Below, piece after piece: positions 7,401-64,000 of a stretch of 64,000 nt of DNA. The stretch spans positions 88,042,001-88,106,000 of the forward strand of contig CM059432.1 in NCBI GenBank assembly GCA_030390025.1, written 5' to 3'. Numbering within the stretch: the first letter of the stretch is position 1; each line of letters begins with the position of its first letter. The notes below the pieces were generated by a model that made no database searches, was not told the DNA's origin, and saw only the letters and a list, made by a program, of their open reading frames with translations. Made by a program: the position numbers and the translations under genes. The stretch is from Squalus acanthias (Eukaryota).

Positions 7401-10400
7401 CCTCCAGACTGCTGCGGGTGCGCAGCCACACAGCTTAGCTGGAATGTTGGTCACTCGCTGCAGAATACCCAGCCTCTGACCTGCTCTATAGCCACAGTAC
7501 TTATGTGGCTGGTCCAGTTAAGTTTCTGGTCAATGGTGACCCTTAGGATGTTGATGGTGGAGGATTTGGCGATGGTAATGCCATTGAATGTCAAGGGGCG
7601 GTGATTAGATTCTTGCTTGTTAGAGATAGTCATAGCCTGGCACTTGTGTGGGCAAATGTTACCTGCCACTTATCAGCCCAAGCCTGAACGTCGTTCAGGT
7701 CTTGTTGCATGCGGGCATGGACTGCTTCATTATCTGAGGAGTATTTATGTGGCTGGTCCAGTTAAGTTTCTGGTCAATGGTGACTCCCAGGATGCTGATG
7801 GTAGGGTATTCGGCGATGGTAATCCCGATGAATGTCAAGTGGAGGTGGCTAGACTCCCTCTTGTTGAAGATGGTCATTGCCTGGCACTTCTAATAAATTC
7901 AGATTTCCTCTGCAGTGGGCGGTTTCCAGTTTCAGTGAGTCATCTGGAGACCTTTTACTTCTGGCTTATCTTCCTCTCCTAACTTCAGCTAACACCTTAC
8001 GCATACATATACTGTTATGCTGTATTTCTTTAAACTGTCACGATCATTGTCAGACTACCATCTAAGCTGAGTTATGAGCAGATTCTAACACTACTGTTTA
8101 CAGACATCTTTCTCCTCCAAAATTTGTCTTGCTTTTAGTTTTAAACTAACTTCTAAAATCTGGGGAAAACCTTCCCTTTTTAATTTATCAAGATTAGAAA
8201 CATTATTAGGGTAATCTAATCCATTAAAGCATTCATTCAAACTATTCATGCACCAGTCAACTTCAGCTCATAGCATTGTCCGCATCAATAGGGTACATTT
8301 TGTGAGGCCCAATGTCACCTGTGGTGTCTTGGATGCTGTCAGTACATATCAAAAAATCACAGTTGTGCTGCCTGCAGTTTCCCATCCACTGAAATAAATA
8401 ATGTGGCCTTGCCAAATTTACCTTAATAATGTTAGTGCCAAGGGTGCACAATGAATGGCTGTTATCTGATGAATTCTTCTTGTTCATCAGGGTTTTTCCA
8501 GTTTCAGTAGTTGAAGAAGTTTTTAAAACCTTGTCAGCAAAGTATTTGTAGCGGAATTAACCCGACAGTGGCAGGTTGGCAACAGCTTTGCTACAACCAA
8601 TAATTAGGTTGGGTTGCTGACTTAACGTTTTGTACGATGTGTGAGATTTCTCATGCTAATTTCTATGCGGAAGTATACATCAAGTGAAATAAAAACAGAA
8701 AAAGCTGGAAATACGCAGTAGGTCAGGCAGCATCTATGGAGAGAGAAACAGAGTTAACGTTTCAGGTCGATGACCTTTCATCAGAACTGAAAATGTTACA
8801 GATGTAACAGGTTTTAAGTAAGTGCTGAGGCAGGGAAAGGAGGGATGGGATGAAAGAACAAAAGGGAAGGTCTGTGATAGGGTGGAAGGCAGGAGTGATT
8901 AAATGACAAAAGGGATGATGGTACAAGACAAAAGGAGATGGTAATGGGACAAGTAAAGAAACAAAAGATGAGTCTAGAAGAGGTGTAAATGGGAATGGCA
9001 GAATCATCAACAGCTGCCGTCCGAAAAAATGGGTGAGAGGTTATGGTCTGAAATTGTTCAACTCAATGTTGAGTCCGGAAGGCTGTGCCTAATCGAAAGA
9101 GGAGGTGCTGTTCCTTGAGCTTGCGTTGAGCTTCATTGGAACAGTGTATGAGGCTGAGGACAGAGAAGTCAGAGTGGGAGTGGAGCGGAGAATTAAAGTG
9201 ACAGGCGACCGGAAGCTCAGGGTCACGCTTGCGGACTGAATGGGGGTGTTTTACAAAGCGGTCACCCAATCTGCGCTTGGTCTCTCCAATGTAGAGGAGA
9301 CCGCATCGTGAGCAGCGAATACAGTATACTAAATTGAAATAAGTACAAGTAAATCGCTGTTTCACCTGGAAGGAGTGTTTGGGGCCCTGGACGGTGGGAA
9401 GGGAGGAGGTAAAAGGGCAGGTGTTGTATCTCTTGTGCTTGCATCAGCAGGTGCCGTGGGAAGGGGAGGGGGTGTTGGGGGTGATTGAGGAGTGGACGCA
9501 GAGGGAACGGTCCCTTCGGAATGCTGAAAGGGGAGGGGAAGATGTGTTTGGTGGTGGGATTACACTGGAGGTGATGGAAATGGCGGAGGATGATCTGTTG
9601 AATGTGGAGGCTGGTGGGGTGGAAGGTGAGGACAAGGGGAACCCTATCATGGTTCTGGGAGGGAGGGGAAGGGGTGAGAGCAGAAGTGCGGGAAATGGAA
9701 CAAACACGGTCGAGGGCACTGTCAACCACGGTGGAGGGGAATCCTTGGTTGAGGAAAAAGGAAGACATATCGGAAGCACTGGTATTGAAGGTGGCATCGT
9801 CAGAACAGATGCGACAGAGACGGAGAAATTGGGAGAATGGAATAGGGTCCTTACAGGAAGCGGGGTGGGAGGAAGTGTAGTCAAAGCAACTGTGGGAGTC
9901 AGTGGGCTTATAGTGGATATTGGTTGATAGCCTATCCCCAGAAATGGAGACAGAGAAGTCGTGGAAGGGAAGAGAAGAGTCAGAGATGGACCATGTAAAG
10001 GCAAGGGAAGGGTGGAAATTGGAAGCAAAGTTGATGAAATTTTCCAGTATGAAGCGAGAGCAGGAAACAGCAACAACACAATCATCAATTTACCAGAAAA
10101 AAAGGTGAGGGAGGAGACCTGAGTAGGACTGGAGCAAAGAATGTTCCACATATACTATGAAAAGGCGGACATAGCTAGGACCCATGCGGGTTCCCATAGC
10201 AACACCTTTTATGTGGAGGAAGTGATTGGAGTCAAAGGAGACGTTGATCAATATGAGAACAAGTTAAGTCATGCGGAGGAGGGTGGTGGTGGATGGGAAC
10301 TGGTTGGGGCTCTATTCAAAGAAGAAGCGGAGCGCCCTCAGGCCGTCCTGGTGTAGAGGGGATGGAGGTGGAGAGGGATTTGATGTCCATGGTGAAAAGG

Positions 10401-13400
10401 AGATGGTTAGGGCCAGGAAACTGGAAACTGTTAAAGTGATGGAGGGCGTCGGAAGAGTTGCGGATGTAGGTAGGAAGAGACTGGACAAGGGGAGAAAACA
10501 TAGATTCGAAATAGGAAGAAATCAGTTCCATGGGGCAAGAACAGGCTGAAACGATGGGCCTACCAGGGTAGTCCTGTTTGTGGATCTTGGGAAGGAGGTA
10601 GAAGCAGGCTGTGCGGGATTGGGGGACCATGAGGTTGGAGGCCATGGAGGGACGATCTCCAGAGGAGATGAGGTCAGTGACAGTCTTCGAAACAATGGCT
10701 TGATGTTCGGTAGTGGGGTCATGGTCCAGGGGGAGGTAGGATGAGGTGTCGGAGAGTTGACGTCCAGCCTCTGCAAGGTAGAGGTCGGTTTGCCAAACAA
10801 CAACTGCAGGTTTGATGACAATGTTTGGGTTGGATCTGAGAGAACGGAGTGCTGCAAGTCCAGACGGAGGTAGGTTGGAGTGAGTGAGGGGAATAGAGCA
10901 ATTGAGACAGCTGATATCATGCCTGCAGTTCCCAATGAAAAGATCTAGAGAGGGTAAGAGGCCAGAGGGATGGTTCCAGGACGGGAGAAAGGGTCCGCTG
11001 TGCGGGTGGAAGACTCCTGGTCAAAGAAGTGGGTGCCGAGGCGAAGGTGATGGAATAAGAGCTTAGCGTCATGCCGAGCTCGAAATTCATTGAGGTGGGG
11101 GCGTAAGGAGGTGAATCTCAAGCCTTTGCTGAGGACTGATCATTTGGGTCAGAGAGGGGAAGGTCAGAGGGGATAGTGGAAACATGGCAGGGGGAGAAAT
11201 TGGAAGAAGGGATGGGGTCAGAGGAAAGTGAAGGGGAAGAAGGTTCAGAGAGGTGTTGGTATCCAAGAGTTGTTGAAGCTTGCAATTCTTGACACCTGAA
11301 AGGAAGGAAAAAAGTTTTTTGTGAATGTAGTTAGGAATCACAATAATAATAGCAAACTAAAGTAAACTTAACTGTGCAAAAATTGGGTATGCCCCCTTTG
11401 GAGCGCTAACTTCGCCGGGCCTGAAAAAGTTAGCGCCCCTGCACCCGAAATTCGATGGTAGCACCCCAAACAGGAGGCGGGGTGCTACTGGAAGCGCTCC
11501 CCCTCCCTCTTGGGGTCTCCAGCCCAATATCGCGGTGCTACATGCTGCAGCGCCACACACACATCATGCATGTGTGTGCCAGATTTCCAGGGAGCTGCCA
11601 TGACTCATTCATCCTGCGCCAGTCCACCCTCCCTTAGCTCTTCGCACCTCCGACCAGACTTACTGGCTGGCTGCTTGGAGACGAGGGGTATCCACTGAAG
11701 ATGTGGCTGATGACACCCTTGAGGAGGCCAAGCAATGAGGCTGAAGAGTGCGACAATCAAAGCCAGATGATGACGAGATGTGTAATAGAGCAAGCAGTCA
11801 GGATGTTGAAGATGCGCTTCAGATGCCTGGACAGATCTGGAGGAGCCCTTCAATACGTACCAGCCAGGGTCTCCAGAATGATCATCGTATGCTGCGCTCT
11901 GCACAACAGAGTGCAGCAGCGAGGATTGGAGTTGCAGGAGGAGCAAAGCGCAGAACTCAGAGCCTCTTCGGAGGAGGAGGAGGAGGAGGAACCTGAAGTG
12001 GACATGGCACCAGCAGTGGCGCATATTGCTGCTCGGGAGGCCCGGGATGGCCAGATTTAGTTAATTTGCACCAGTGCACCCATCTGGCACCCAGATGCTG
12101 AACCAACTCCCCCCCCCCACCCCCCCAACCAACACCACAAAGCAGTCCTAAAATGCCCAAACCATTTCTGTCACACACACACACATTGCTCGAAGTTAAG
12201 TAATGTCTTACCATTCATGCCAACTGACAAGGCCATTTTCCAAGTAGCAGGCAAAAATTTTAACCCAACAGCCTAAGTGGGAAGCTGTAGTGGCTTTCTG
12301 GCCAGGTGCAGACAGCAGGGAAGAAGATCAGGGCCAGAAGAGGCGCAAACAGGTAAGTTTCTTTACTTTACTTGTTGGGCCAGGAGGAGCTGGAGTGCTC
12401 CTCTGAGACACAAGGAAAGCTCAGGGTTAGGCCTCCCCTGCCACGGCCCTGCCCCCTCCCCCTCCCCTTCCTGATTGTGAGACCCCTGTGAGACAGCCCT
12501 GGCAGCTGATCCTGTCATCTACCAGGTGACGGTGAGGGGCTTTGTGATTTTCCAACGAGAATCCCCCCCTCCACTCCCTGGAACGGATGGGAATTTGGCC
12601 AGCGAGAATTAAAAGAGGCCTAGACATTAATCTCAAATGGGTGTCATTCTGCCGTGGGTGGCGGGAAATTAATCAGCCAGTGCAGTTTCCTGCCAGATCC
12701 AGACCTCAGCCTTTATTTTTTTTCATTTTACTTTTCTTTCCTGTATTTTACCCATGCTACTCACCAGATAAGGATGGCCCGGAGACCAATTCCTAAGCCT
12801 TTGTTAATGCTGCTCCTACTTGGTCTGCAGGTTTCCCTGTTTTTATAGGGAAGAAATACTCTGTGCTAGACTGACAGCATCCACAGCAACATGGTTGAAA
12901 TAAACTCATGATTTGGAGAATCACTTATGCAAACCCAGATCCTACATTCTGTAGCAGAGTATTCGAACTCCAGTGTGTCACTATCCTAGTGTATATGTGC
13001 ATTCGTCTCTAAAGAAGAGAAAACATTTTGTGTAGCACCTTATTGTATTGCTCAGGAAAGTTTCAATTTTTTTTTAATTCTCAAAAGACCAGCATTTATT
13101 GCCCCTCCCTAGTTGCCCTTGAGAAGGTGGTGGTGAGCCGCCTTCTTGAACCACTGCAGTCCGTGTGGTGAAGGTACTCCCACAGTGCTGTTAGGGAGGG
13201 AGTTCCAGGATTTTGACCCAACGACAATAAAGGATCGGCGATATACTTCTAAGTCAGGATGGTGTGTGATGGTACAATGAATTACTTTGAAGTACAGTGA
13301 TTGTTATATCGGTAAACACAGGAGACATTTTGCACACAGCAAATTTCCACAAACTGCAGTGAGATGAATGATCAGTTTTTGATGGTGTTGATTGAGGCAC

Positions 13401-28400: not shown

Positions 28401-31400
28401 AACACAGAGGTGATATCCACTCAGGATCTTTAGGGAGCAATTCTCCAACCTCAACCTCAGTGAGGAACAGTGTATGCGATGTCTCCGCTTCACTAAGGAG
28501 GTGCTCACTGAAATCTGCCACCTGTTGCAGGCGGAACTGCAGCCTCAGAGCAGGGCGAGGACTGCATTGCCAGTGGCTGTGAAGTTGAGTGTAGCCATGA
28601 ATTTTTATGCGTCGGGCTCCTTCCAGGCTGGAGCAGGCAATATTTCCAACATCTCCCAGTTTGCTGTGCACTGTTGCATAAGGGAATCTCTGTATGCAAA
28701 CAGAGCTGAATACATTTCATTCTCTCTTGCCAGAAAGAAGCAGGCGGAGTGAGCATGCGGCTTTGCCAGGACAGCAGGCTTCTCCATGGTGCAGGCTATC
28801 ATTGACTGCACAGACATCGCTTTGCGGGCGCCGCATGTGAATTCAGAGATGTAACCCAACTGGAAAGGATTCCACTCCCTCAATGTCCAGCTGATGTACG
28901 ACCATACTCAGTGCATCATGCAAGACAATGCTGGGTATCCTGGAATCGGCCATGATGCCTTCATTCTGCGGCAGTCCGCTATACCATCTGTATTTGAACC
29001 ACCAAGACAAACCAGAGGCTGGCTATTGGGCGACAAGATCTATCCGCTGACCACCTGGCTCATGACTCCGGTGCGCAACCCAAGCACAAGTGGGCAGCAT
29101 GCATATAACGAAAGCCATGCTGACACATGGAATGTGATTGAGCAGACCATTTGCGTGCTTAAACAACACTTCCACTGCCTGGACCACTCTGGAGGAGCCT
29201 GCAGTATTCGCCAGAGCATGTTGAAGGTGGCAGGGCAAGTTGAGAAAGCAGTTAAAAAGGCTTATGGGATCCTGGGCTTTATGAATAGAGGTATAGAGTA
29301 CAAAAGCGTGGAAATTATGATGAACCTTTATGAAACACTGGTTCGGCCTCAACTTGAGTATTGAGTCCAATTCTGGGCACCATACTTTAGGAAGGATGTG
29401 AAGGCCTTAGAGAGGGTTCAGCAAAGATTTACGAGAATGATTCCAGGAATGAGGGACTTCAGTTACGTGGATAGACTGGAGAAGCTGGGGTTGTTCTCCT
29501 TAGAGCAGAGAAGATTGAGAGGAGATTTGATAGAGGTGTTCAAAATCATGAGGGGTCTGGACAGAGTAGATAGAGAGAAACTGTTCCCATTGGCAGAAGG
29601 GTTGAGAACCAGAGGACACAGATTTAAGGTGACTGGCAAGAGAACCAAAGGCGACATAAGAAAAAACTTTCTAACTCAGCGAGTGGTTAGGATCTGGAAT
29701 GCACTGCCTGAAAGGATGGTGGAGGCAGACTCAATCATGGCTTTCAAAAGGGAGTTAGATAAGTATCTGAAAGAGAAACATCTGCAGGGCTACGGGGAAA
29801 GAAAGACTTGCGCCTTTCACAACGACCAGATGTCTCAAAGTGCTTTACAGCCAATGAAGTACAGTCACTGTTGTAATGTGGGAAACACGGCAGACAATTT
29901 GCACACAGCAAGGTCCCACAAACAGCAATGTGATTTTGACCAAATAATCTGCTTTTGTTGTGTTGATTGAGGGATAAATATTGGTCAGGACACGGGGGAT
30001 AACGCCCCTGCTCTTCTTCAAATTAGTGCCATGGGATCTTTTACATCCACCTGAGAGAGCAGACAGGGCCTCGGTTTAACGTCTCATCCAAAAGACAGCA
30101 CCTCCGACAGTGCAGCACTCCCTCAGCACTGCACTGGAGTGTCAGCCTAGTTTTATGTGCACAAGTCCCTGGAGTGGGACTTGAACCCACAACCTTCTGA
30201 TTCAGAGGCAAGTGTGTTACCAACTGAGCCACAGCTGACACTGTGAAAGGGTGGAGGAGTGGGACTAGCTGAAGTGCTCTTGCAGAGAGACGGCACGGGC
30301 TCGATGGGCCGAATGGCCTTCTTCCGTGCTGTAACCATTCTATGATTCTATCTGGAGTCTATTTTTAACACCTCTCACTCCTGCACAGGATACAAGATGA
30401 GTTCATCACTATCGCCTAATAAATGATTTCTATTCCATGTTGCAACCGTAATTGTCCCTGTATCTACTTTATTGATATTAGCGTGGCCAGTGCTCCTCTG
30501 GACGCTACTCTCTTTTTCCTTCTAAGCTGAAAATACACTGTCCTAAACGCTTCATTCTCTTTACGTCCTCATTGTTTTGGTATGAAGACTCACTGCACAC
30601 TCTTATATTTTGACTTATTTTGCACAATGAAGTTAAGATACCAAAAGCAAGCAGCAGTTCCACTTTCAAGTATATTGGTTTGTTTTGGCTTTCTAACATA
30701 ATTTCAAATCCAAAGTGCTTTGTGTTTCCTGATGCTTGTGATTGAGGGGTGAAGCCGCATAGAGACAAATTTATTTCATATATCAATTATTTTTTACATT
30801 TTATTTACCCCCAGAGATCCAGTATTTGCAGAGCAGCAGTACATGCCGGGGTCATTCGTAATCATCAAGGAGGTTACATTGACATAATGCCAGTTGACAA
30901 GAAGAAACATTATGTTGGCTCGTACCAGAATGGAATATTCTCCGAAAGGTTGGAACAATAATCTAAAGCAGCAGACTTAGTCAGATGCCAAAGTTAATTT
31001 TCGAACAGCAGAGCTTATTGAACTTATTGGCTGGAGAGAAAAACATAAACAGGCTGAAACAGTCTGTCCCATCCCAATGTTGTGCAAAGTAATTAATGAA
31101 TTCAGTGGAGGGTATGGTATGCAGAACTGCCTGGCTCCTGTAAGCTGATAAAACATATCCCCCTAAAAGCTGCTTACTAATACAGCATCACAACAAATTT
31201 TGCTTTTTATAACTGTTGTGTCTGTTCTTCATAGACCAATAGCAAATACTATAGGATGAATTTAGGGATTCATTCATTATTGAGTTTCTTAATATCGACT
31301 TTGGAATCATCCTGAATGTTATTAGTTTTTTTAATCCATAGGAATTAAATTCTGATAAGGATTCCAAATCCTATTGCACATAAATGTACTCCACATATAG

Positions 31401-36282: not shown

Positions 36283-37345
36283 ATGGGGGCTCTATTTGCA
36301 GTTCCCCTCGCACTGCAGCATGACAGGGAGATGGAGCAGAGGCAGCAAAGAAGAGGAGAAGCTGCTCACAGAGGGATGCAGAGGGGCAGGAGGGCTCTCA
36401 GCAGGAGGTCTTACCCACCTAGGGTCTTCCGAGAGCCCTACTCCTACCTGCACTTAAGCCAGGAGTATGTATTCGGAGGCTCCACTTCACCAAGGAGGTG
36501 GTCACAGAACTCTGCCACCTCTTGGAACCAGACCTGCAGCCTGAGAGCAGGGTGACGACAGTGCTGCCAGTGGCCCTCAACGTCACCGTAGCCCTGAATT
36601 TTTTCACCACCGGATCCTTCCAGTCTGCAGTAGGAGACATAGCTAACATCTCCCAGTTCGCCGTCCATCGCTGCATCCGGGAGGTCATAGAGGCTCTGTA
36701 CTCCAGGAGAAGTGACTTCATTGTCTTCTCTCTGAACAGAGAAAAGCAGGAGGAGCGCGCATGTGGCTTTGCCAGGATAGCGGGCTTCCCCATGGTGCAG
36801 TGCGCCATCGATTGCACACACGTGGCTTTGCGGGCACCGTATACCAATCTGAGATGTACCGTAAACGCAAAGGCTACCACTCACTTAATGTGCAGTTGGT
36901 GCACGACCACGCCCAGCACATCATGATGGTGAATGCCCAATATCTTGGCAGCAGCCATGATGCCTTCATCCTGCGCCAATCTGGTGTGTCAGCAATCTTC
37001 CAGCCACCACATCAAACCCGAGGGTGGCTGCTCGGAGACAAGGGCTATCTGCTCGACACCTGGCTGATGACTCCCCTCTGCAACTCCACCACTCATGGCC
37101 AGCAATCATATAATGAGAGCCATGCTGCCACGAGGAACCTCATCAAGCAGAGCATCGGAGTGCTAAAGCAACGGTTCCGCTGCTTTGACCGCTCGGGAGG
37201 AGCCCTCCAGTACACGCCGGAGCGGGTGTCCCATTTCGTGGTGCTCTGCTGCACCCTCCACAACTTGGCCATCATGAGGGCCCAGCCCTGGCCACCACGG
37301 GTTCTGCGACCACCTCAGGAGGAAGAGGAGGAAGGGAGGAGGTAG
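36283..37345 (+). pseudogene. Harbinger (HARBI1-like) DDE transposase with two frameshifts
   Basis: AIDCTHV, KGYHSLNVQLV, GSSHDAFIL, LLGDKGY, WLMTP, LKQRFRC...CCTLHN across three overlapping ORFs. Confidence 0.88.
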
Positions 37346-50200: not shown

Positions 50201-51588
50201 TGGTCCAGGAAGCGGAAGCTTTGTTTAAGGAAGTCAATGGTCGGCTCTACCAGATTCCGTGTGACAGCATGGCTTTCGTTATATGCTGCTGCCCACATGT
50301 GCGTGGGTTGTGCACCGGTGTCATGAGCCAGGTGGTCAGCGGATAGCCCTGTCATCCAGTAACCACCCTCTGGTTTGTCTTGGTGGCTCAAATGCTAATG
50401 TAACAGCGGACTGCCGCAGAATGAAGGCATCATGGCTGCTGCCAGGATACCAAGCATTGACCTGCATGATGAGCTGAGTATGGTCGCACACCAGCTGGAC
50501 ATTGAGGGAGTGAAATCCCTTCCGGTTGCGGTACATCTCCAAATTGAGATGCGGCGCCCAAAAAGCGATGTGCGTGCCGTCAACAGCACGCTGCACCATG
50601 GGAAGCCTGCTATCCTGGCGAAGCTGCGTGCTCGCTCCGCCTGCTTCTCTCTGGCAAGAGGGAATGAAATATATTCAGCTCTCTTTGCATACAGAGCTTC
50701 ACTCACCTCCCTTATACAGGAGTGGACGGTGAACTGGGAGATGTTACAGATGTCGCCTGCTCCAGCCTGGAGGAGCCCGACGCGAAGAAGTTCAAGTCCA
50801 CGGTCACCTTTACAGCCTCTGGCATTGCCGTCCTTGCCCTGGACTGAGGCTGCAGGTGGCAGATTTCAGTGAGCACCTCCTTAGTAAAACAGAGATGTTG
50901 CACACACTGTTCCTCACTGAGGTTGAGGTAGAAGAATTACCCCCTGAAGACCCTGGGTGGATATGGCCCCTTGCTGGGAGCGCTTCTCACCCTCCTCCTC
51001 CTCCCTCTTCTAGCAGCTTGTCCTGCTCTGTGTCGCCTCTGCTCATTCTCCCTGTCATGCTGCAAGCCAAGGGAGATAGAAACTACTGCACCTGTGTCTG
51101 GGAGCAACTGGTCTGAGCAGACCCCTTGCAAGGCAGAACCAAGTCCTTGAGCACATGCCACACCACTCCTTGCAGACTTTAGGCAACTTTAAAGAAATCT
51201 AGAAAACACCAAACACTCCTACAAACTCAGCAACTGCTAGTAGAAATCAATCAGCAACTAACAAGTAAGCAGGTGATGATTCCTTTAAATAGCACTGGTT
51301 GGGAGTTCTTCCTGCTGCTGCATGTTCAGCTGTGCGAGGTTAAGAGAGGACGTTAGCTCTAGCATTGAGGTTGAAAGTGGCAGCGCTGCCGTCAAATTTA
51401 ACGTCCCACTCTGCGTACTCTGCATACTTCTGGTGCACGCTCCCAGCACCGACACTAATGCATTCACCAAAATGGCGTCCAGCGCGGACCGCACCAGAAG
51501 TGTGCGCGCTGCTCGAATGCCATTTTCGACCCAAAACAGCACCCATAGCGCCCAAACAATGGACTCTACGCAACCAAATTTCTAGCCG
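47223..51588 (-). mobile_element. full-length two-gene Harbinger transposon (transposase -, Myb/SANT gene +), inactivated
   Basis: TIR GGGCTAAAAATT / AATTTCTAGCCG, TSD TAT; Myb/SANT exon 47524-47763 (APRFSDTALEVLV..V...W.QIA.EV......TW.QC.KK.NDL); transposase ~49975-51095. Confidence 0.88.
48516..48893 (-). mobile_element. tRNA-derived SINE (second family) nested in Harbinger
   Basis: Matches 39212-39635. Confidence 0.75.
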
Positions 51589-55276: not shown

Positions 55277-55401
55277 GACAGAAAAAGCTGCAAATACTCA
55301 GCAGGTCAGGCAGCATCCGTGGAGAGAGAAACAGAGTTAACATTTCAGGTCAAGATGCTGCCTGACCTGCTAATTATTTCCAGAATTTTATGTTGTCATT
55401 T
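55277..55401. mobile_element. Penelope terminal fold-back fragment immediately left of the ERV
   Basis: AGCAGGTCAGGCAGCATC ... GATGCTGCCTGACCTGCT inverted pair, matching 8700-8770. Confidence 0.65.
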
Positions 55402-55980
55402 TTGTAGAATTCGCAATATATCGCGATTTTATTAATAAGGAGAAAACACAGAGTCTCGTTCAAACAGCTTTTATTTCAGCAGAATGCTGTCAGGTTTCTC
55501 AAAGTGGACACAAGCAGCCTGTAAAATGGCCGCCGCACCTCGTGACAGAACATTCTAGACTTTTCGACAGGCAGACAAGATGGCGTTCCAATAAACATTT
55601 GTGCAAGATCGATTAAGATTCAGCACAGTGAAGATAATACACGAGACATTATGGGTTTGCAGTATACACATAAATACTGAAATCGGTCTCCCAGGTACGA
55701 ATAAAAGCTATTGTACCGAGTAATCAAGGGCCCATCCAAAAGACATTAATATGTAAAATCCCAACGACTCTACGATGAGAGAGCCGTTAGCAGGTAGTTA
55801 TACAAAACACTTGGAAGCCCCAAAACCCCTCCAGGGAGAACACCGACCGATTTAACAATGGGAGAAATATTAACAGGTACTCAGACAGTTACGAGTAGCC
55901 CCGAAACCCATTAAGAACGGAGATCACCCATACAAGACATTTGAGCGCCAAACTCAAACAAAAGAAAGGACATTAAGGTT

Positions 55981-56012
55981 GGGCGGGAAACGGAAGATTT
56001 TGTACTATAATT
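55981..56012 (+). promoter_or_regulatory. candidate LTR core promoter
   Basis: GGGCGG (Sp1 box), CGGAAG (ETS core), TATAAT, then pyrimidine-rich initiator-like sequence ~25-30 nt downstream. Confidence 0.45.
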
Positions 56013-56221
56013 ACAAGCTCCAACCGTCCATCTTTCTCTTATTCTCTTATCCGATCGACTCGTAACCTCGTGGCTGCTCCTGTGTTTTTGACTCGTAGTC
56101 TTGTTCCTGCTTGCCTGGTGCCTCTTTGAAAAAGACTGTTGAACTTTCTGATCCGTTCGGATCTACCTCGTGTCGCGTAACGAAGACCTATGTTGGTAAC
56201 TGGCATCGGAACCAAAGGCCC

Positions 56222-56258
56222 GAGATGAGATGAGATGAGATGAGATGAGATGAGATGA
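56222..56258 (+). repeat. (GAGAT)7 microsatellite inside LTR
   Basis: Direct reading. Confidence 0.9.
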
Positions 56259-57052
56259 GAAGAGAGGAAGACCATACTCATCGCCACGGTCAGTAAATCC
56301 CGACCGTGCCTGTAGGTCGAACAGCCAAGTTTTCCTTGCCAGGAAGACTTCTTTGAACTTGCAAGAACGGATCGTCAAAGATGATATTGACTGGGCTGTA
56401 TTCGGAAAGTACCTGTTAAACCAACCAACACAGATCTTCATCACAGCAGACGGTCCAGCCTGCTAGCCGGAGCAGAAGCAAGTAAACAAGTGGGACCAGG
56501 AGACCTCCTGATCGACACGTGGGTGCTGCGGTGAAAAACATCCGATCAGCTATTCGGAATTTCTCCGAGTTATCACGAGTGGTGAGCATGAGTCTCGAAA
56601 TCCTACGAATCTAGCTAGGACAGATATTGATAGGGGAGGGTTTAAGTATTAAGGATACTTGTAATGTGTGCCCCTATTTACGGTGTGTCGTTCGTTCCTC
56701 GTTTCCCTAGGATCAGCTATATAACTGCTTGTAAGATTGTACTGTCATTAATCTGTGCTTATGACATGTATTTCGTAATCTTAAATATCATGCAATAAAG
56801 ATTTTCCATTTCGTACCATTCAACCGAGTCTACATGAGTTTCATCTCCATTACTGCTCTCGCATCTAAGTCCAGTGTCTAGAACCATAAGGGCGAGTGAT
56901 TCGAACCACTCACAGGTGTGTCTAGTGCTCCCAGACTGGCTGGAGACCAGAACAGGCAACAAGGCCTAAACCCGCACTGACATACAGGCTGCACAGAGCC
57001 GCGTGAATCTCACAGGCTGCGAGACACGCAGGGTCAGAATCCCTTACAGAAA

Positions 57053-58861
57053 ATGGCGACCGCGGCAGGACACTGGCAGCGAGAGGGTAGTGTGTTAGAC
57101 TTTGGAATGACTGTACGAAATGTTATGCAGGAAAAGATAGCAGATTATGTGTTCGGAAAGGTTAATCTAACTAAGAAATGGATAAGTGAATTGTTAGCGG
57201 ATAAAAGCCCGCTAGAGGCAGCCGAAAGGTGGACAGATAGTAAAGAACATAAAAAGACACTCGAGAAAGCAGTCTGGCTTATGTGTTACAAAAGGCAGGT
57301 TCAGATTTCAAACCAGACCATTACAGCGCTAGTAGCTCGAATCAGTCATTTAGAGGGAGAAATGGATGAGAAGGTTTCTGGAGGGGAAATGCTCATTAGG
57401 AATTTAAGTGCGTTGCACCAAGAACGCCGGGAAATCTCCAGTCACCATAAAACAAGGATAGATTACCTCGAGTGTCAGGTCACTGAGGCAAAGTTAAATG
57501 AGAGCAGGTTAAAGGAACTATGTGCCCGCCAAGCTGCCCAGATAAGAACTCAGGAAGAGAGCTTAACGGGGGTTAGGGCGGCATATAAGTTGGCCCTTGA
57601 GGATAAGTTTCAGGGAGCCGATCATAGCGCCTGCCAAAAAGAGATAGAGCACCTCAAAAAGGCCGTGAACAAAGCGCACGGCATGGTGTGCCTTATCAGT
57701 CCGTCAGCACACCAGCCGCTAGTAAGTGAGAAGTTTAAGAAATCCCCACCAAGTAAAGCAGAGGAAGTAGTAGCCACTGCGCCCTCCGCGCCACCCAGCT
57801 ATTCGGAAACCTGGGTTAGGGAGGAAGCAATGGAAGAAACGAAAGAGCCCATTGAGAAAGAAGTGGAAAAGGGACCGTTGTATCCAGTAACGGGTATTAA
57901 AAGGGGCCCAAACAGAAACGGTGGGGAAGAACCAGGGGATCTCCTCGGACAGCTTGTGTTGCCTCACAGCTCACACCAGCTGAGAGTTATGATAAATCAC
58001 GTACGGAAGCTGACCGAGTCAGACGGCCCTTCCGTACATTTCAGAGAAGTTGAGCAAACCGCAGCCATTAACGGCTGCGATGATGGGGAAACAGCAAAAA
58101 TGCTGTTGTTTTCGTTAGGCAGTACAATCCTTCAGTGTCTCTCAGGCGAGAGCAAGAGGGGAACCAAGACTTATGAGGCATTAAAGAATGAGGTCCTGGA
58201 AGTGTTGGGGGCGGACGATGAAGGTCCGTTTGCTAGAGTGGGACAGACAGTGCAGATGGAGGGAGAACCCCCGAAGGTTTTTGCCGACAGGCTGTGGCCA
58301 GTATATGAGCGCAGCTGTCTAGGTGCGCCCGAGCGCGAAGATGTGGAAGGCGCCGGTTTAGCTCATTGGCTTAGGTGCATAATAGCCAACAGTTTACCAG
58401 CCATCAGAGAGCAGGCAAAAGCATGGTTTGATCCCAATGACCCCAACATTACGGAAGAGTCGGTCTTGAATCGACTCACGTTAGGATATCGCAATATAAG
58501 GGGTATGGCAACACGTCCCCTTAAGGGAAAAGTACATGAGGTACGACCCGCAGCCCCGTATCAAAGAGAGTGGCATCAGGAGGGTAATCGCGCCCCACAG
58601 GCAAGTAATGCTTGTTACGGGTGTGGGAAGACAGGGCACTGGCGCAAGCATTGCAGGAACCCTTGGAAAGATTCCAAGGATAAAAATCCCGCGGTCCGAG
58701 CCCAGGCGCCTGTCCCGGCTAGGGAAGCTAATGCACCCACCCCTCCCGACGACCTCGAAGTAGTGTTAGGAGCCATGCGCAATCTATTGAGTGCACATGG
58801 AAAGGTGGCTGTCGCAACCGGCCCCGTAGGTGCCGCAGGACCGTCTAATAGTACCCCATGA
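57053..58861 (+). CDS. gag: Gag polyprotein (602 aa)
   Basis: Intact ORF; N-terminal coiled-coil-like region, PSAPPSY late motif, CYGCGKTGHWRKHC zinc knuckle (58613-58654). Confidence 0.9.
   Translation: MATAAGHWQREGSVLDFGMTVRNVMQEKIADYVFGKVNLTKKWISELLADKSPLEAAERWTDSKEHKKTLEKAVWLMCYKRQVQISNQTITALVARISHLEGEMDEKVSGGEMLIRNLSALHQERREISSHHKTRIDYLECQVTEAKLNESRLKELCARQAAQIRTQEESLTGVRAAYKLALEDKFQGADHSACQKEIEHLKKAVNKAHGMVCLISPSAHQPLVSEKFKKSPPSKAEEVVATAPSAPPSYSETWVREEAMEETKEPIEKEVEKGPLYPVTGIKRGPNRNGGEEPGDLLGQLVLPHSSHQLRVMINHVRKLTESDGPSVHFREVEQTAAINGCDDGETAKMLLFSLGSTILQCLSGESKRGTKTYEALKNEVLEVLGADDEGPFARVGQTVQMEGEPPKVFADRLWPVYERSCLGAPEREDVEGAGLAHWLRCIIANSLPAIREQAKAWFDPNDPNITEESVLNRLTLGYRNIRGMATRPLKGKVHEVRPAAPYQREWHQEGNRAPQASNACYGCGKTGHWRKHCRNPWKDSKDKNPAVRAQAPVPAREANAPTPPDDLEVVLGAMRNLLSAHGKVAVATGPVGAAGPSNSTP
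57054..57071 (+). promoter_or_regulatory. primer binding site (tRNA-Ser-like)
   Basis: TGGCGACCGCGGCAGGAC 5 nt after ...TTACA; TGG complements tRNA CCA and the rest resembles tRNA-Ser 3' ends. Confidence 0.55.
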
Positions 58862-59869
58862 CTAGAACCCGCGCAGCCCGTCTACCTGTGTCCGCTTAGC
58901 TATGATGCGTGGAAGCGACCTTTGGTGGAGATGGAGGTAGAGAAACAGAGGGGTAGTTATTTGTTGGACACGGGAGCTTCTTGCACCATAATCCATACAG
59001 ATAGCCCTTTTGACTCGCCGCTATCTACCAGGGTCCCATTCACGTTAGCGGGGTTCACAGGAAAAGAACAGGCTGGCGCGTTCTCCCTTCCGCTATCCAT
59101 TCGTTTGGGAGCACTTCACCTTAAGTGGAAGTGTATACTGATGGAATGGCAGGAGGGGGGTGGAAGAGGTATTCTCGGGTCTGATCTTCTATCGGGACAC
59201 GGGATCCTCGTGGACCTCAGAAATCACTGTCTCTGGGGGGCTAAGGGTGAAAAAGGCGAGGTAGTAGTGATTCCGGGGGAGGAAGAAACAGGGGTCCTGT
59301 GTACCGTACAGCCATCCGGAGGCTACGACCTCAGGCTTATGGTCGCAGATGTCCCAACGGACATGCAAACGTACGTGTCAGATAATATGCACGCGTTTGC
59401 AACCCACAAGCACGATTGTGGGAGGGTTATCGGGTTTGAGGTCAGCGTAGATGGGGACCCCATGACCCGACCCCAAAAGCAGTATAACTTCCCCAAAGAA
59501 GCAGAACCCGATATGGAGACAGCAATGTCCTCCTTGGTGCAGCAGGGCGTGTTGAGGCCGATAGCCACACACGTGAACTCCCCATTATGGCCGGTTAGGA
59601 AGCCGGATAATTCGTGGAGAGCCACGGTGGACTACAGAGTCCTTAACAGTAACATTCCCGCCTGCGCGCCCACGGTAGCAGCAGTTGCTGACCTAATAGG
59701 GAGCATCCCAGCGTCCGCGACCACGTTCACGGTGCTGGATATCTCGAACGGTTTTTGGTCCATCCCGCTGAGGCGAGAGGACCAGTACAAGTTTGCCTTT
59801 ACTTTCAAGGGACAACAGTACACATGGAACTGTCTGCCACAGGGTTTCCACAATAGCCCCAGTATTTTT
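58862..59869 (+). CDS. pol: Pol 5' part (protease + RT N-terminus), in frame with gag after the UGA
   Basis: LLDTGAS, ILGSD, NSPLWPVRKPD.SWR..VDYR.LN, LDISNGFWSIPL, LPQGFHNSP. Confidence 0.9.
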
Positions 59870-62800
59870 CCATCAGTGTATGGCAGGAAGTTTAAAGGAG
59901 TTTAGTCAGCCCAATCAGATAGTGCAGTACGTGGATGATTTGCTCCTATTTACGGACTCAAGGGAGGAGCATGGACCACTACTGGACGAGTTATTGGAGC
60001 TGCTAGCGAGAAAGGGTTTAAAAATAAATCCTAAGAAAGCACGTATCGGTCAGCGGGAAGTAAAATTCCTGGGACTGACCATACGCGCTGGGGAAAGAGC
60101 CATAGACAAAGCGAGGAGGGAGTCGGTGCAAGAATTACCGATTCCCAACAACATAAGGGGTGTGAGGTCCTTCTTGGGACTGACCGGTTACTGCAGGGAC
60201 TTTATCGAAGACTATGCGGCCACAGCAGCGCTGCTCCTCCGACTCCTCCATAAGGGGGTGGAGTGGTCTTGGGACGAGGGCTGCCAAGCAGCCTTCGAGA
60301 AGTTAAAAAGGGATCTGCAGACCGCGCCAGCCTTAGGGGCCATAGATGGGGGGAAGGAGTTTTTCCTGGAGGTAGCTGCCAGCGGAGACAGCTTGAGCGC
60401 TGTGCTGCTCCAAGAGCGTCACGGCAAGCTGAGGCCGGTTGTCTATTCATCCAGGGTGTTAACGGATGTGGAGAGAAGTTTCTCCAATTGCGAAAGGCAC
60501 CTTTTAGCCACGCATTGGGCTGTGAAAAGATCAGCGATCTTCACAGGGCTCTCTCCCATCACTCTCCTCACACATCACACACCAACTAAGATGCTTCTGG
60601 ATGGGAGGATTAAAGATGGGACCGTAAGCAGCGCGCGCATTGCGCGCTGGACCCTTCTTCTTTCCCAGATGGATCTTAAAGTAAAAGGTCTTTGCGAGCC
60701 CAGGCTTGCGGCCAATTTGGTATACCCCGGTACAGCCCACCGGTGTTCGGTGGAAGGGGTGTGGGACATCAACATAGGTTTACGGGCCGGGATACATCCC
60801 ACTGGGTGCGAGATTTATGTTGATGGGTCTAGCACAGTATCTGCTGGCGAACGACTCACGGGGTGTGGAGTTTATGACCCTGCGGCAAACCTTGCCCTGG
60901 CGATCAAGCTCCCCAGCACCATGAGCGCGCAGCAGGCTGAGCTGTCTGCCGTGGTGTACGTTGTTACCCACCCAGACATTTTCCCAACCCCATACACGAT
61001 TTGCTCGGACAGTATGTTCACCTGCAATTCGTGTACGGAATACCTGGCCATTTGGTCCCGCCGTGGATACACCTCCGCGGACGGGCGACCTTTAACGGTG
61101 AAGCCCTTGCTGGAAAAGATCTTAGCAGCAGCAGTAGGGGAGGAAGGAGAGATTTTCATCCATAAGGTGAAAGCTCACTCCTCCACAGAGCCCCGTGGGG
61201 AGGGCAACCAGCAGGCGGATGCGCTAGCCAGGGAAGGTGCCCGCAACGGCATTTTCTGGGACCCCTATGGGACCAGACCCATAGCAGCGATCCAAGGCAG
61301 GGACGGGAATCCCGGGAACACCAGGGTAGCATTGCCCCTAGACCTTAAGACCGTCCAAACCCAGGATCCCGCCCTAAAAGCAGTCCTAAAAACCATTGCT
61401 GAGGGGAGGCAGGTAGAAGGTCCGTACAGTACGGCAACCCTCTCAGTTAAGGAAGGCATGCTGTTCCGCGAGGAGCAGTGGGTTGTGCCGCAGCAGCACA
61501 GGAGGGAATTCCTCCAGTTGGCTCACGAGGGACCAGGGGCAGGGCACCCCGGGCCCGAGGTTACCTGGCAACGGGTAGAGCAAGCGGGATGGTGGCCAGG
61601 GCTCAGGGAACAAGTCCGCGAGTTCTGTGCAAACTGTCTTGTGTGCGCTGCAAACAACCCAGACCCCCAGAAAAGGAAGGTGCCCATGGAACACGTAAGA
61701 AGGGTAGAGGGACCATGGCAGTCGATACAGATCGACTATATAGGACCCCTGCCCACCACCCAGGGAGGTTATAAATACTGCCTCGTCTTGGTGGATGTGT
61801 TTTCCAAGTGGATGGAAGCCTTCCCCTGTCGAACAGCTACGGCACTGGGTACTGCAAAAATCTTGGTCCGGGAAGTGTTCTCGCGGTGGGGACTTCCCCG
61901 TTTTGTGGAGTCAGACCAAGGGAGTCATTTCACCGGCCAGGTGATGCAGAACACCCTCATGCTTTTGGGCATTGAAGGGAAGTGGCACGTAGCACACAAT
62001 CCCCAGTCATCCGGGATTGTTGAACGCATGAACCGGACCCTGAAGGAGAAATTGAGGAAAGAGACTAGGAACTCGCCCCAAAAATGGGCGGAAGTTCTGC
62101 CTTTAGTCCTCATGGGGGTCCGGGCCAGTCAGTCAAAAAGTACGGGGTACTCCCCGCACGAGGTGATGACTGGGAGGCTCATGCGAACCCCCACCCATGT
62201 GCTAGCGCCGGTGCTCACTGAGGGTCAGCTCCAAGAGATAAGCAGGGACAAGTTCGCCCAGACTCTCTTGGAGCGCCTGAAGCAGGTTTATGAGCAGGCG
62301 GCTGGGAACATGGGAAGGCAGCATCAGGGCAATCGCCTGCTGCTGGAACCCCGCAAAACGCGGGAGTGGGAAGTAGGAGACCAGGTCATGGTCAGAAACT
62401 ACGCCAGAGTAGGGAGTCTGGAACCACTGTATATGGGACCCTACAACATTGTAGACAAGGCGAGTCCCATGGTATACGCCGTAAAAGTACCTCGGCGCAC
62501 TAAGTGGTTCCACGTAAACCAATGCAAACTGTACAAGCCAGGTGCGCAAGGGAAAACCACAGCGGTAAACCCTGCCAGTGGGGAAGCACAGCCCCAGGTA
62601 GGACCACAAGGCACACAGGCAGGCATAGCAGCTTGCATCAGGGGAGGGGACATCCTGGAAGATCATGAAGCCTTTTTGTGGAGTTGGGAGTCAGATGAGG
62701 GAGAATTCCGGGAACTCGAGTCAGATGAGGATAGTGATGAAGACGAGTGGTTTTTGGGGAACGGTCCCATTTTAGGTATAGGGAGGATACGGGCTGCAGA

Positions 62801-63383
62801 TAGAGATCCACACAGGGTGGACACACAAGCTGCAGGTCCCGAAGACAGGAGGGAGGAGCTAGGGGAGGCGGGGCCAGCCGCTGTGGGAGCACAGGGAGTG
62901 ACGGTGAGGACCCCAGAGACAGAGCCGCCCGCTTTGAACGTCCCGCCCTCGGGGGAGGCAGAGATCGCGAGTGAAGGGCCGCCTGCTGGGCCGAGCAGGG
63001 TGGAGCCACAAACTGCGAGCCCCGAGGTTAGGGAGGCGGAGTCAGCGGAGGCGGAGCCAGCGACTGTGGTGGAACCCCAGGTCGTCCCGATGGAAGTCTC
63101 GGAACCCGGTCCGTCAGTCACGGAACCCCCGCCCATGGCAACTCCCCGTAGGTCAAGTAGAGAACCCCAGCCCAGGAGGATGTGGTCATGTCCCCAGACT
63201 GCCCCAAGGCGTAGACTTAAGGTTAAGGCAACCCAGATACAGCCCGGCCCCATCGCAGCAGCAACAGGCTGCGGCAGATCAGAGGAAGGAATCAGTGCAG
63301 CAACAGGCTGCGGCAGATCAAAGGGAAGGGTCAGTGCCCTCCCACCGTCGGGAAGAGCTCGCAGCAGCCTTCTCAGAATTTAA
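59870..63383 (+). CDS. pol: Pol 3' part (RT YVDD, tether, RNase H, integrase, long C-terminal tail) after +1 frameshift
   Basis: YVDD 59928-59939; IYVDGS...AQQAEL...SDS...HKVKAH...GNQQADALA; H-H-C-C, IDYIG, SDQGSHF, ERMN, GPY. Confidence 0.9.
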
Positions 63384-63510
63384 AGGGGCCGCCCTGAGAA
63401 CGGGCGGCACTGTATAGTAATAAGTTTTAAGTTTTAAGTTCATAGTTCAAGGTTAAGTTTATAGTTTTAATAAGGTTAAGATTGTAGTGTTTTTAACAGA
63501 AAACGATAAA

Positions 63511-64000
63511 ATGATGGGAGCTTTAAAGATAGGTTTAGTTAAAGTTTATTCAGCGAACGTTGAAGTTTACGTGAGGCGAGGTCAGGGGACCCGCTCACCC
63601 TTCACAAAAGCCAGAGACTCTTGCGAGGCTGGCTACCTCATTCTATCTGATCACAGGAACCAAGGAAGGATGGAACGAATTCTAGTATTGCTCGCGGCAA
63701 TCGGATGTGGATTGGCCTATCGAGGCCGCACCAAGGATGTCGTGGTGTTTGGATGTTCCGGGGACACGGCCCCCATCGCGGTGGATGGGACCGGAAGACG
63801 GGAGGCAGAGGAGACCAGCACCTATTTCCACAAGGGAAGGTGGCCAGGATGGCTGGGAACGAACTCAACGGAGTATTCTAGCACATCGGGGTTTGCCTAC
63901 AAAGAGACTTCTTTAATGTGCCCCAAAGTAAGGATCATCGCACCCAGGATCAGCGTCACCGTCGGCAAACGGATTTGTTTGACTTGTAGTGGGAATGTCC
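63511..64000 (+). CDS. third ORF in env position (secreted/membrane glycoprotein), 3'-partial; possible start at 63511 or 63670
   Basis: Open from ATG 63511 to the window end without a stop; MERILVLLAAIGCGLA signal-peptide-like segment at 63670; NST sequon; splice-acceptor-like sites at 63499 and 63656. Confidence 0.75.
   Translation, partial: MMGALKIGLVKVYSANVEVYVRRGQGTRSPFTKARDSCEAGYLILSDHRNQGRMERILVLLAAIGCGLAYRGRTKDVVVFGCSGDTAPIAVDGTGRREAEETSTYFHKGRWPGWLGTNSTEYSSTSGFAYKETSLMCPKVRIIAPRISVTVGKRICLTCSGNV

Follow-up and report, generated by a model that had tools for sequence, protein, structure and literature searches.

Structure of the provirus

The stretch analysed here (the window) comprises 64,000 nt of the Squalus acanthias genome (CM059432.1:88,042,001-88,106,000; assembly of 3.71 Gb), at the right-hand end of which an endogenous retrovirus (ERV) begins. 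A 10-kb downstream stretch (L011, base 1 of which is window position 63301) supplied the rest of the element, a complete provirus of 12,711 nt in total on the forward strand, which starts with TG at 55403 and has its 3' end outside the window. We suggest, with a probability of about 0.68, that it is a simple, recently integrated canonical retrovirus of cartilaginous fishes, related to snakehead retrovirus (SnRV; clade Huo, class III). An earlier note, made from the letters of the window, had described a young, nearly intact retrovirus, either loki-like or of a new sister lineage; its structural observations were borne out, its placement only in part, as discussed below.

The provirus is bounded by a 5' long terminal repeat (LTR) of 1,646 nt with TG...CA termini (55403-57048) and a 3' LTR of 1,638 nt (L011:3176-4813, 2.5 kb past the window end). 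A TTTT target-site duplication flanks the pair (left copy at 55399-55402, right copy at L011:4814-4817, directly after the 3' LTR), and 4-nt repeats are also present beside a second provirus (L005/L006) and one further LTR (L002); going by general retrovirology, integration would use a 4-nt stagger. A polypurine tract (L011:3164-3174) lies before the 3' LTR, ~440 nt after the end of env. The 5' LTR carries a TATA-like box near 56718 and AATAAA at 56794, and would drive one genomic RNA; we infer a U3 of ~1.3 kb and a U5 of ~0.23 kb. A (GAGAT)n microsatellite in U3 (56222-56263) is the same in both LTRs, and LTR length differs by 5 nt between copies.

The two LTRs are separated by four substitutions in 1,638 columns, all transitions and three of them at CpG sites, and by one 8-nt indel, giving a Kimura two-parameter distance (K2P) of 0.0024. 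This corresponds to 0.6 My at a rate of 2.2e-9, 2.5 My at 0.5e-9 (the rate of PMC10699275) or 5.6 My at 2.2e-10 (the rate of PMC4422223). These ages are overestimates because of CpG decay. CpG observed/expected is 0.63-0.87 in the element versus 0.40 in the 55-kb flank, in line with the retained CpGs reported before, and the provirus is very young.

The primer-binding site (PBS; 57054-57071) lies 5 nt past the LTR end, and its 18 nt are complementary to the 3' end of host tRNA-Arg(TCG) plus CCA; by general retrovirology, this tRNA would prime reverse transcription. Its genes occur in tandem arrays in the host genome (431 pattern matches; all three loci scanned were Arg(TCG)). On contig C26, at 38.99-42.2 Mb, long runs of 1.6-kb tandem units with tRNA-Arg(TCG) and tRNA-Ser(GCT) genes are a plentiful source of the primer.

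The 602-aa gag (57053-58861) has a coiled-coil-like N-terminal half, late motifs (PSAP at residue 244, overlapping PPSY), a capsid-like region and a single CCHC knuckle (CX2CX4HX4C at residue 521); in the Atlas, its middle part lies next to Retrotrans_gag and Ty3-capsid clusters. The gag AUG, in a strong Kozak context (AAAATGG; window 57053-57127), overlaps the start of the PBS, and both this overlap and the open frame are kept in 8/8 other loci, two of them from diverged families. An alternative start at Met25 is also kept and the synonymous excess across codons 7-24 is small, leaving these codons as unproven, candidate coding sequence. Gag translation would begin at the primer site or no more than 55 nt from it; more speculatively, a primer annealed across the gag AUG could turn the RNA away from translation and towards reverse transcription. 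The leader before gag is nearly nil, and a packaging signal may sit in the long U5 or in gag.

gag terminates in TGA-CTAG and pol (58862-63383) continues in frame after the TGA, as the earlier note had it. UGA-CUAG is a leaky stop context, and Gag-Pol would come from UGA readthrough, as general retrovirology suggests. The TGA-CTAG junction is present in 29/29 copies examined, and the TGA in 100/100 among the matches listed for the junction (190 in all). pol encodes a protease (DTG), a reverse transcriptase (RT; YVDD), tether, RNase H and an integrase (HHCC, core and C-terminal SH3-like parts); Pfam matched the protease, RT, tether, RNase H, HHCC and integrase core. After the integrase, a low-complexity tail of ~270 aa (62560-63383) is acidic and proline-rich, with internal duplications of 74 nt and 39 nt. 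The frame is broken once, by a frameshift at ~59,865-59,870, and the window copy, as assembled, cannot make full Pol. This break is private to it: all 29 sister copies, which are the best matches to the window copy and hence its closest subfamily, are without it, and 19 of them are open across the ~945 codons covered.

The envelope protein

The third open reading frame (ORF), previously noted for its signal peptide, is an env of 783 aa within the element, whose first 110 codons occupy 63670-64000 and which runs past the window to L011:2721. It would be expressed from a spliced RNA, a candidate acceptor lying just upstream of 63670. Env has a signal peptide, ten N-glycosylation sequons, a basic cleavage site (RQRR, 327-330) at which furin would cut, an F-like core (245-710), a transmembrane segment at 734-752 and a short tail. 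An immunosuppressive domain and CX6CC, the marks of a gamma-type transmembrane subunit, were looked for in Env and neither was found.

Fifty Env relatives were found, and 18 of the 20 proteins looked up were Env matches. Among these 20, the named cartilaginous fish matches are from Rhinoraja, Pristiophorus, Scyliorhinus, Mustelus, Heterodontus, Heptranchias and Chiloscyllium, and the frog matches from Pelodytes, Xenopus and Mantella. The relatives in the first three genera are 58-75% identical, agreeing, as does the 3.71-Gb genome, with the cartilaginous fish host supposed from the sequence before its origin was known, and the Chiloscyllium relative is annotated 'Ig-like domain-containing'.

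Single-sequence searches of Pfam and PDB with Env returned nothing significant, weak immunoglobulin (Ig) matches only, whereas a profile of 38 Env sequences matched foamy virus Env in PDB (8rm1, E 0.004). A single-sequence AlphaFold model was set aside (pLDDT 34); the model built from the 38-sequence alignment reached a pLDDT of 60, with the best core blocks at 80-94. Compared by Foldseek with the fusion (F) proteins of respiratory syncytial virus (RSV), human parainfluenza virus 3 (hPIV3), Newcastle disease virus (NDV) and henipavirus, this model gave a best E of 1e-11 (RSV, hPIV3), with TM scores by target of 0.42-0.54 for post-fusion forms. VIA aligned 383 residues with NDV F (Z 9.8, rmsd 20.8) and 273 with foamy Env (Z 8.1, rmsd 5.7), and the Atlas neighbours include Gypsy-env and Baculo_F clusters. 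The modelled Env shows a paramyxovirus-F-like fold, the core of which would fuse membranes. Telling against this are a pTM of 0.44 and the segment after RQRR, which is only mildly hydrophobic (0.51).

Residues 79-175 gave VIA matches to Ig and beta-sandwich domains (Z ~5), and an Ig-like head at about these residues is probable. It is weak by each single test (Pfam E 0.46, VIA Z ~5, block pLDDT ~30-63), which counts against it, and Ig_3 matched 3/38 alignment members, with E up to 1. That such a head would bind the receptor is speculative, and the weakest step of the mechanism proposed here. By eye, a frog Pol gene model (P0011) runs C-terminally into a segment with a signal peptide and Ig-like sequence, and a 749-aa Env (P0158) starts with a comparable one, which suggests that frog relatives may have an Ig-headed Env as well.

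SnRV Env aligns collinearly with the shark protein (HHalign probability 93, 288 columns, 21%), across the CP..GP start, the basic site and several cysteines; its profile score of 12.2 bits was reached by 0/300 shuffles. Judged by this alignment, the two proteins are homologous; Env homology is no published mark of clade Huo. F-like folds have been published for the Env of foamy viruses (PMC11468914; PMC12583693) and lokiretroviruses (PMC7947760). No statement that SnRV Env is F-like was found in the open-access literature searched; the available text of PMC11468914 mentions neither 'snakehead' nor 'SnRV', and that of PMC12583693 does not mention 'snakehead'. Nor did this search turn up the link between SnRV Env and the shark protein. 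Predicted Env proteins of two walleye viruses in BFVD also matched the F-like model by Foldseek (WEHV1, E 5e-12; WDSV, E 3e-9; TM scores low), which suggests that walleye epsilonretroviruses may be F-type too.

Phylogenetic placement

The main RT tree held 43 Gypsy-rooted rows, 34 of 77 having been removed as near-redundant by our choice. Loki rows in the trees were database proteins labelled through a match to published RT motifs, and the SnRV genome (10,688 nt) and 17 foamy genomes came from the viral collection; SnRV Pol was also among the homologue matches, recognised by an RT equal to the SnRV row in the PMC7947760 supplement. In this tree the shark element falls inside canonical retroviruses (support 100/99) and loki forms a separate clade outside them (100/96). 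A union of the shark element with loki was rejected by the approximately unbiased (AU) test (p=0.0009), as was a union with foamy viruses (p=0.02; mammalian foamy viruses only). The 77-row mixture-model RT tree (quick tree only) again placed the element outside loki, with an open backbone. So did the integrase tree, where the loki clade (98/95) excludes it (backbone open, no row for CGIN1, to which loki integrases are closest), and the RNase H tree, where four loki rows exclude it at 98/94 (31/42 rows kept, 152 columns, weak backbone). The phylogeny of the three domains that the earlier note had proposed thus returns a canonical retrovirus by RT that lies outside loki in every tree; deep branching, apart from both foamy viruses and Ty3/Gypsy, stood, and membership of loki or of a sister to it did not.

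What points to SnRV in particular is the combination of features, which had been held to fit no classic genus and is in fact that of SnRV and of lineage I of the elephant shark ERVs (CmiERV-I). SnRV shares the LDISNGFWS motif in RT, a single CCHC knuckle, a stop codon across which gag and pol stay in frame, a PBS starting TGGCG (which we take to be a tRNA-Arg primer site in SnRV) and the homologous F-like Env, the N-terminal cysteine/tryptophan pattern of which looks Ig-like by eye. LDISNGFW occurs three times in the PMC7947760 supplement, and the two occurrences displayed are both SnRV. The differences from SnRV are a TGA in place of the TAG junction, an LTR of 1.65 kb, almost no gag leader versus ~235 nt, the short Env tail, a signal peptide of its own inside the env ORF, no 3'ORF-type accessory ORF, and thousands of endogenous copies. 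Clade Huo is reported to infect all major vertebrate lineages (PMC6001957), and one exogenous member of the SnRV clade is known (PMC12193657).

CmiERV-I was grouped with SnRV in a published tree (PMC4422223), so that an SnRV-related ERV in a cartilaginous fish was already known. By eye, its DNA encodes the RT motifs LDISNGFWS and LPQGFHNSP; a CCHC knuckle is also present, as is the TGA junction, all in common with the Squalus element. It differs in having another PBS and a gamma-type Env with the immunosuppressive motif LQNRMALD, and it is defective and dated to 75 My (PMC4422223), versus an LTR divergence of 0.0024 and an F-type Env here. The possibility that the element belongs to a catalogued ERV family of cartilaginous fishes, raised by the earlier note as a ground for refutation, is therefore partly realised, at the level of the lineage but not in env.

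Several results weigh against an SnRV relationship. SnRV is sister to the shark element in no tree (unresolved by RT, apart by integrase and RNase H), and the AU tests covered only the loki and foamy unions. The trees held no rows for CmiERV-I, fish foamy-like ERVs or class II retroviruses. No accessory ORF of at least 100 aa was found between env and the 3' LTR, where SnRV, a virus with complex splicing, has such ORFs, and a BLAST match between the two Gag proteins was not significant.

These points leave some room, perhaps one chance in five, for a separate deep canonical lineage of sharks, skates, frogs and coelacanth, which would stand outside the SnRV clade; the Arg primer, CCHC, readthrough and F-type Env would then be ancestral traits that it has in common with SnRV. 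The shark element groups with frog and coelacanth ERVs in the RT tree (95/95), in a group of eight rows that excludes SnRV. RT homologues descend from one relative at 86-90% through frog, coelacanth, turtle and ostrich (39-53%) to loki-type sequences (32-38%); the closest outside the shark family are those of frog and coelacanth at 51-52%, versus 43% for SnRV, 32-38% for eight loki-type RTs and 32% for one foamy RT. The env relatives, from sharks, skates and frogs, fit this picture as well. However, the backbone is a polytomy, so that the exclusion of SnRV is not demonstrated, support for the group falls to 91/87 in a second taxon set, and the tree of PMC4422223 joins CmiERV-I, with its matching RT motifs, to SnRV. 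We therefore prefer the SnRV-related reading.

Membership of clade Tu, the foamy-like ERVs, is far less probable; the catshark has one such family, ERV-Spuma.0-Sca, published with 293 elements (PMC10699275). The motifs LDISNGFW, LPQGFHNSP and IDYIGPLP, which had been called foamy-like, are all present in pol; foamy RTs, however, read LPQGFLNSP (PMC7947760 supplement). The Env profile match to 8rm1, an F-like fusion core common to the foamy Env structures (8RM0/8RM1; PMC11468914) and a long LTR with a long U3 are in favour. In foamy viruses Gag is without CCHC, and pol has a start of its own in a separate frame (in part PMC8278194), unlike the CCHC Gag, in-frame readthrough pol, Arg primer and lack of accessory ORFs seen here, and membership by RT is rejected by the tree and the AU test (fish foamy-like ERVs absent).

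A lokiretrovirus or its sister, extending the loki range to cartilaginous fishes, is less probable still. Lokiretroviruses are alike in gag-pol-env organisation, dual RNase H, Ty3-capsid-like Gag features and an F-like Env with signal peptide, basic cleavage site (RQRR here, RXKR in loki), heptads and transmembrane segment (PMC7947760), and the integrase is 41-42% identical to 4/5 loki integrases. But an F-like Env is not diagnostic, because foamy viruses and SnRV have it, and the shark Env has ~230 more N-terminal residues with a probable Ig domain. The RT motifs also differ, those of loki being D(V/I/L)A(N/S)GFW or DCAQGYW, and PFGY (PMC7947760 supplement), and no smc ORF was seen in the shark element. 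With loki membership by RT rejected by tree and AU test under the model used, and loki clades excluding the element in all three domains, the suspected extension of the loki host range falls away. The premise that loki had not been recorded from cartilaginous fishes agrees with Fig. S1 of PMC7947760 (0/6 chondrichthyan genomes). When the shark genome was searched with a 183-aa loki RT query, none of 150 scored matches exceeded 46%; the six best, which were fetched, were all canonical retroviruses, whereas loki RTs are 51-88% identical to the RT of the query protein.

An env-bearing Ty3/Gypsy element of errantivirus type with an F-type Env, to which the Gypsy-env and Baculo_F neighbours of Env might point, is ruled out for practical purposes by two 100/99 branches between its RT and the Gypsy rows and by the second RNase H (tether plus RNase H by Pfam), which, being common to all retroviruses, is not diagnostic among them; with the late domain and the env gene, this upholds the separation from Ty3/Gypsy made before.

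XtERV-S of Xenopus (PMC8278194) shares the class III backbone, a TGA between gag and pol, PSAP and a recent intact insertion, and differs in being ERV-L-like, with a dUTPase, a Ser primer and a gamma-type transmembrane subunit. Two more basal retrovirus families with DIANGFWS and LPQGFHN motifs were seen in the shark genome (L075-L080), one grouping with a Xenopus ERV (100/97) and the other with an unnamed lineage.

Copy number and selection on env

Marker counts, which are exact or near-exact matches in the genome and not curated copies, put the family in the thousands: 2,816 for an env 20-mer (control 0), 2,217 for an RT 21-mer with at most one mismatch (control 0) and 5,308 for the LTR start (control 1). 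A PBS 13-mer gave 3,524 (control 16), including ~430 tRNA-type matches and other families; the 190 junction matches mark the subfamily of the window copy. The best 57 env matches are 99-100% identical, and 54/57 are without a stop.

Selection was examined in 20 env copies taken in positional order along contig C1, of which 19 are full length and 12 are open for at least 770 aa. They differ from the window copy by 0.6-5.9% (mean 3.2%). Variants shared between copies are 144 synonymous versus 30 non-synonymous (pN/pS 0.06), the ratio being 0.03 in the F core and 0.17 in the Ig region; private variants are 114 versus 56 (pN/pS 0.15). For gag and pol, shared pN/pS values are 0.30, 0.10 and 0.36 (close copies only, 27/29). 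Thus env is under strong purifying selection. Because shared env variants show a pN/pS of 0.06, amplification of the family probably needed Env, and hence reinfection: it would have multiplied mainly by Env-dependent re-entry into the germ line. A point against this is that the purifying selection could date from a free virus before repeated germ-line entries.

The competing mechanism, that a retrovirus of the same class owes most of its copies to retrotransposition within cells or to duplication, env being too young to have decayed, seems to us improbable, if a good deal less so than a foamy or loki origin. Copies are young, tandem and pol-less copies exist, and mammalian megafamilies are env-less (PMC4102558). 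However, the env differences of 0.6-5.9% are mostly synonymous, even the private ones, which is not expected of neutral copying. The pol-less class is seen in LTR pairs 7.7-7.8 kb apart (versus 11.1 kb): the env marker is present in 3/4 of those checked and the RT marker in 0/4, so that gag-env derivatives without pol probably exist and would be carried along in trans. The ~7.7-kb LTR spacing occurs on contig C1 and also on C2 and C16. Neighbouring LTRs 12-13 kb apart (L003/L004 on C7; L002/L008 on C14) share one upstream flank, which suggests that a provirus was duplicated in tandem together with its flank, and triple-LTR arrays are present on C1 and C14.

Implications

We would file the element with the SnRV-related class III ERVs of cartilaginous fishes, as a family whose Env is F-type and probably tipped by an Ig-like head; this removes a false claim on the loki host range. 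An F-like Env is not a loki marker, as an SnRV-related canonical lineage and SnRV itself both have one, and this bears on the origin of retroviral Env. A family with thousands of young copies in which purifying selection strongly constrains env is the reverse of the env-less mammalian megafamilies (PMC4102558). A young multi-copy family also offers natural variation with which to map constraint on Env, on the UGA readthrough signal and on the nearly leaderless gag. No description of this family was found in the open-access literature searched; PMC10435555 (invading ERVs in 2,004 vertebrates) could hold one.

Taken together, these observations allow a wider reading, which we put forward tentatively and regard as somewhat more likely to fail than to hold. 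The SnRV-related clade would carry an F-type fusogen with an Ig-like receptor-binding head, and retroviral envelopes would ancestrally have had the F fold, because foamy viruses, loki and, by Foldseek only, walleye epsilonretroviruses are F-like too; the gamma-type Env of CmiERV-I and XtERV-S would be later replacements. With ~2,000-3,000 proviruses, the shark family would be a megafamily that depends on env and breaks the rule that superspreaders are env-less; it may still be entering the germ line, and its Gag would start inside the PBS. If true, an ancestral F fold would choose among the four scenarios of Env origin left open in PMC7947760.

Sequencing runs and flanking sequence

Contigs of a run from a second labelled organism (X6) cover 30/30 bins of the element. 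The listed pieces are ~94-98% identical, and over 219 nt of unique flank the match is exact; the run comes either from the same species, labelled differently, or from a very near relative. Contigs of a run presumed to be RNA cover 29/30 bins, which for a high-copy repeat is no proof of expression.

The flank (window 1-55400) is rich in repeats, and the provirus is located at the end of a 116-nt inverted repeat (55278-55393). Among the flank pieces, 5201-5905 and 29365-29970 are presumably RT sequences of CR1/L2-type long interspersed elements, 9262-11020 we take to be Penelope-like, and 36716-37345 and ~50300-50870 presumably derive from Harbinger-like transposases.

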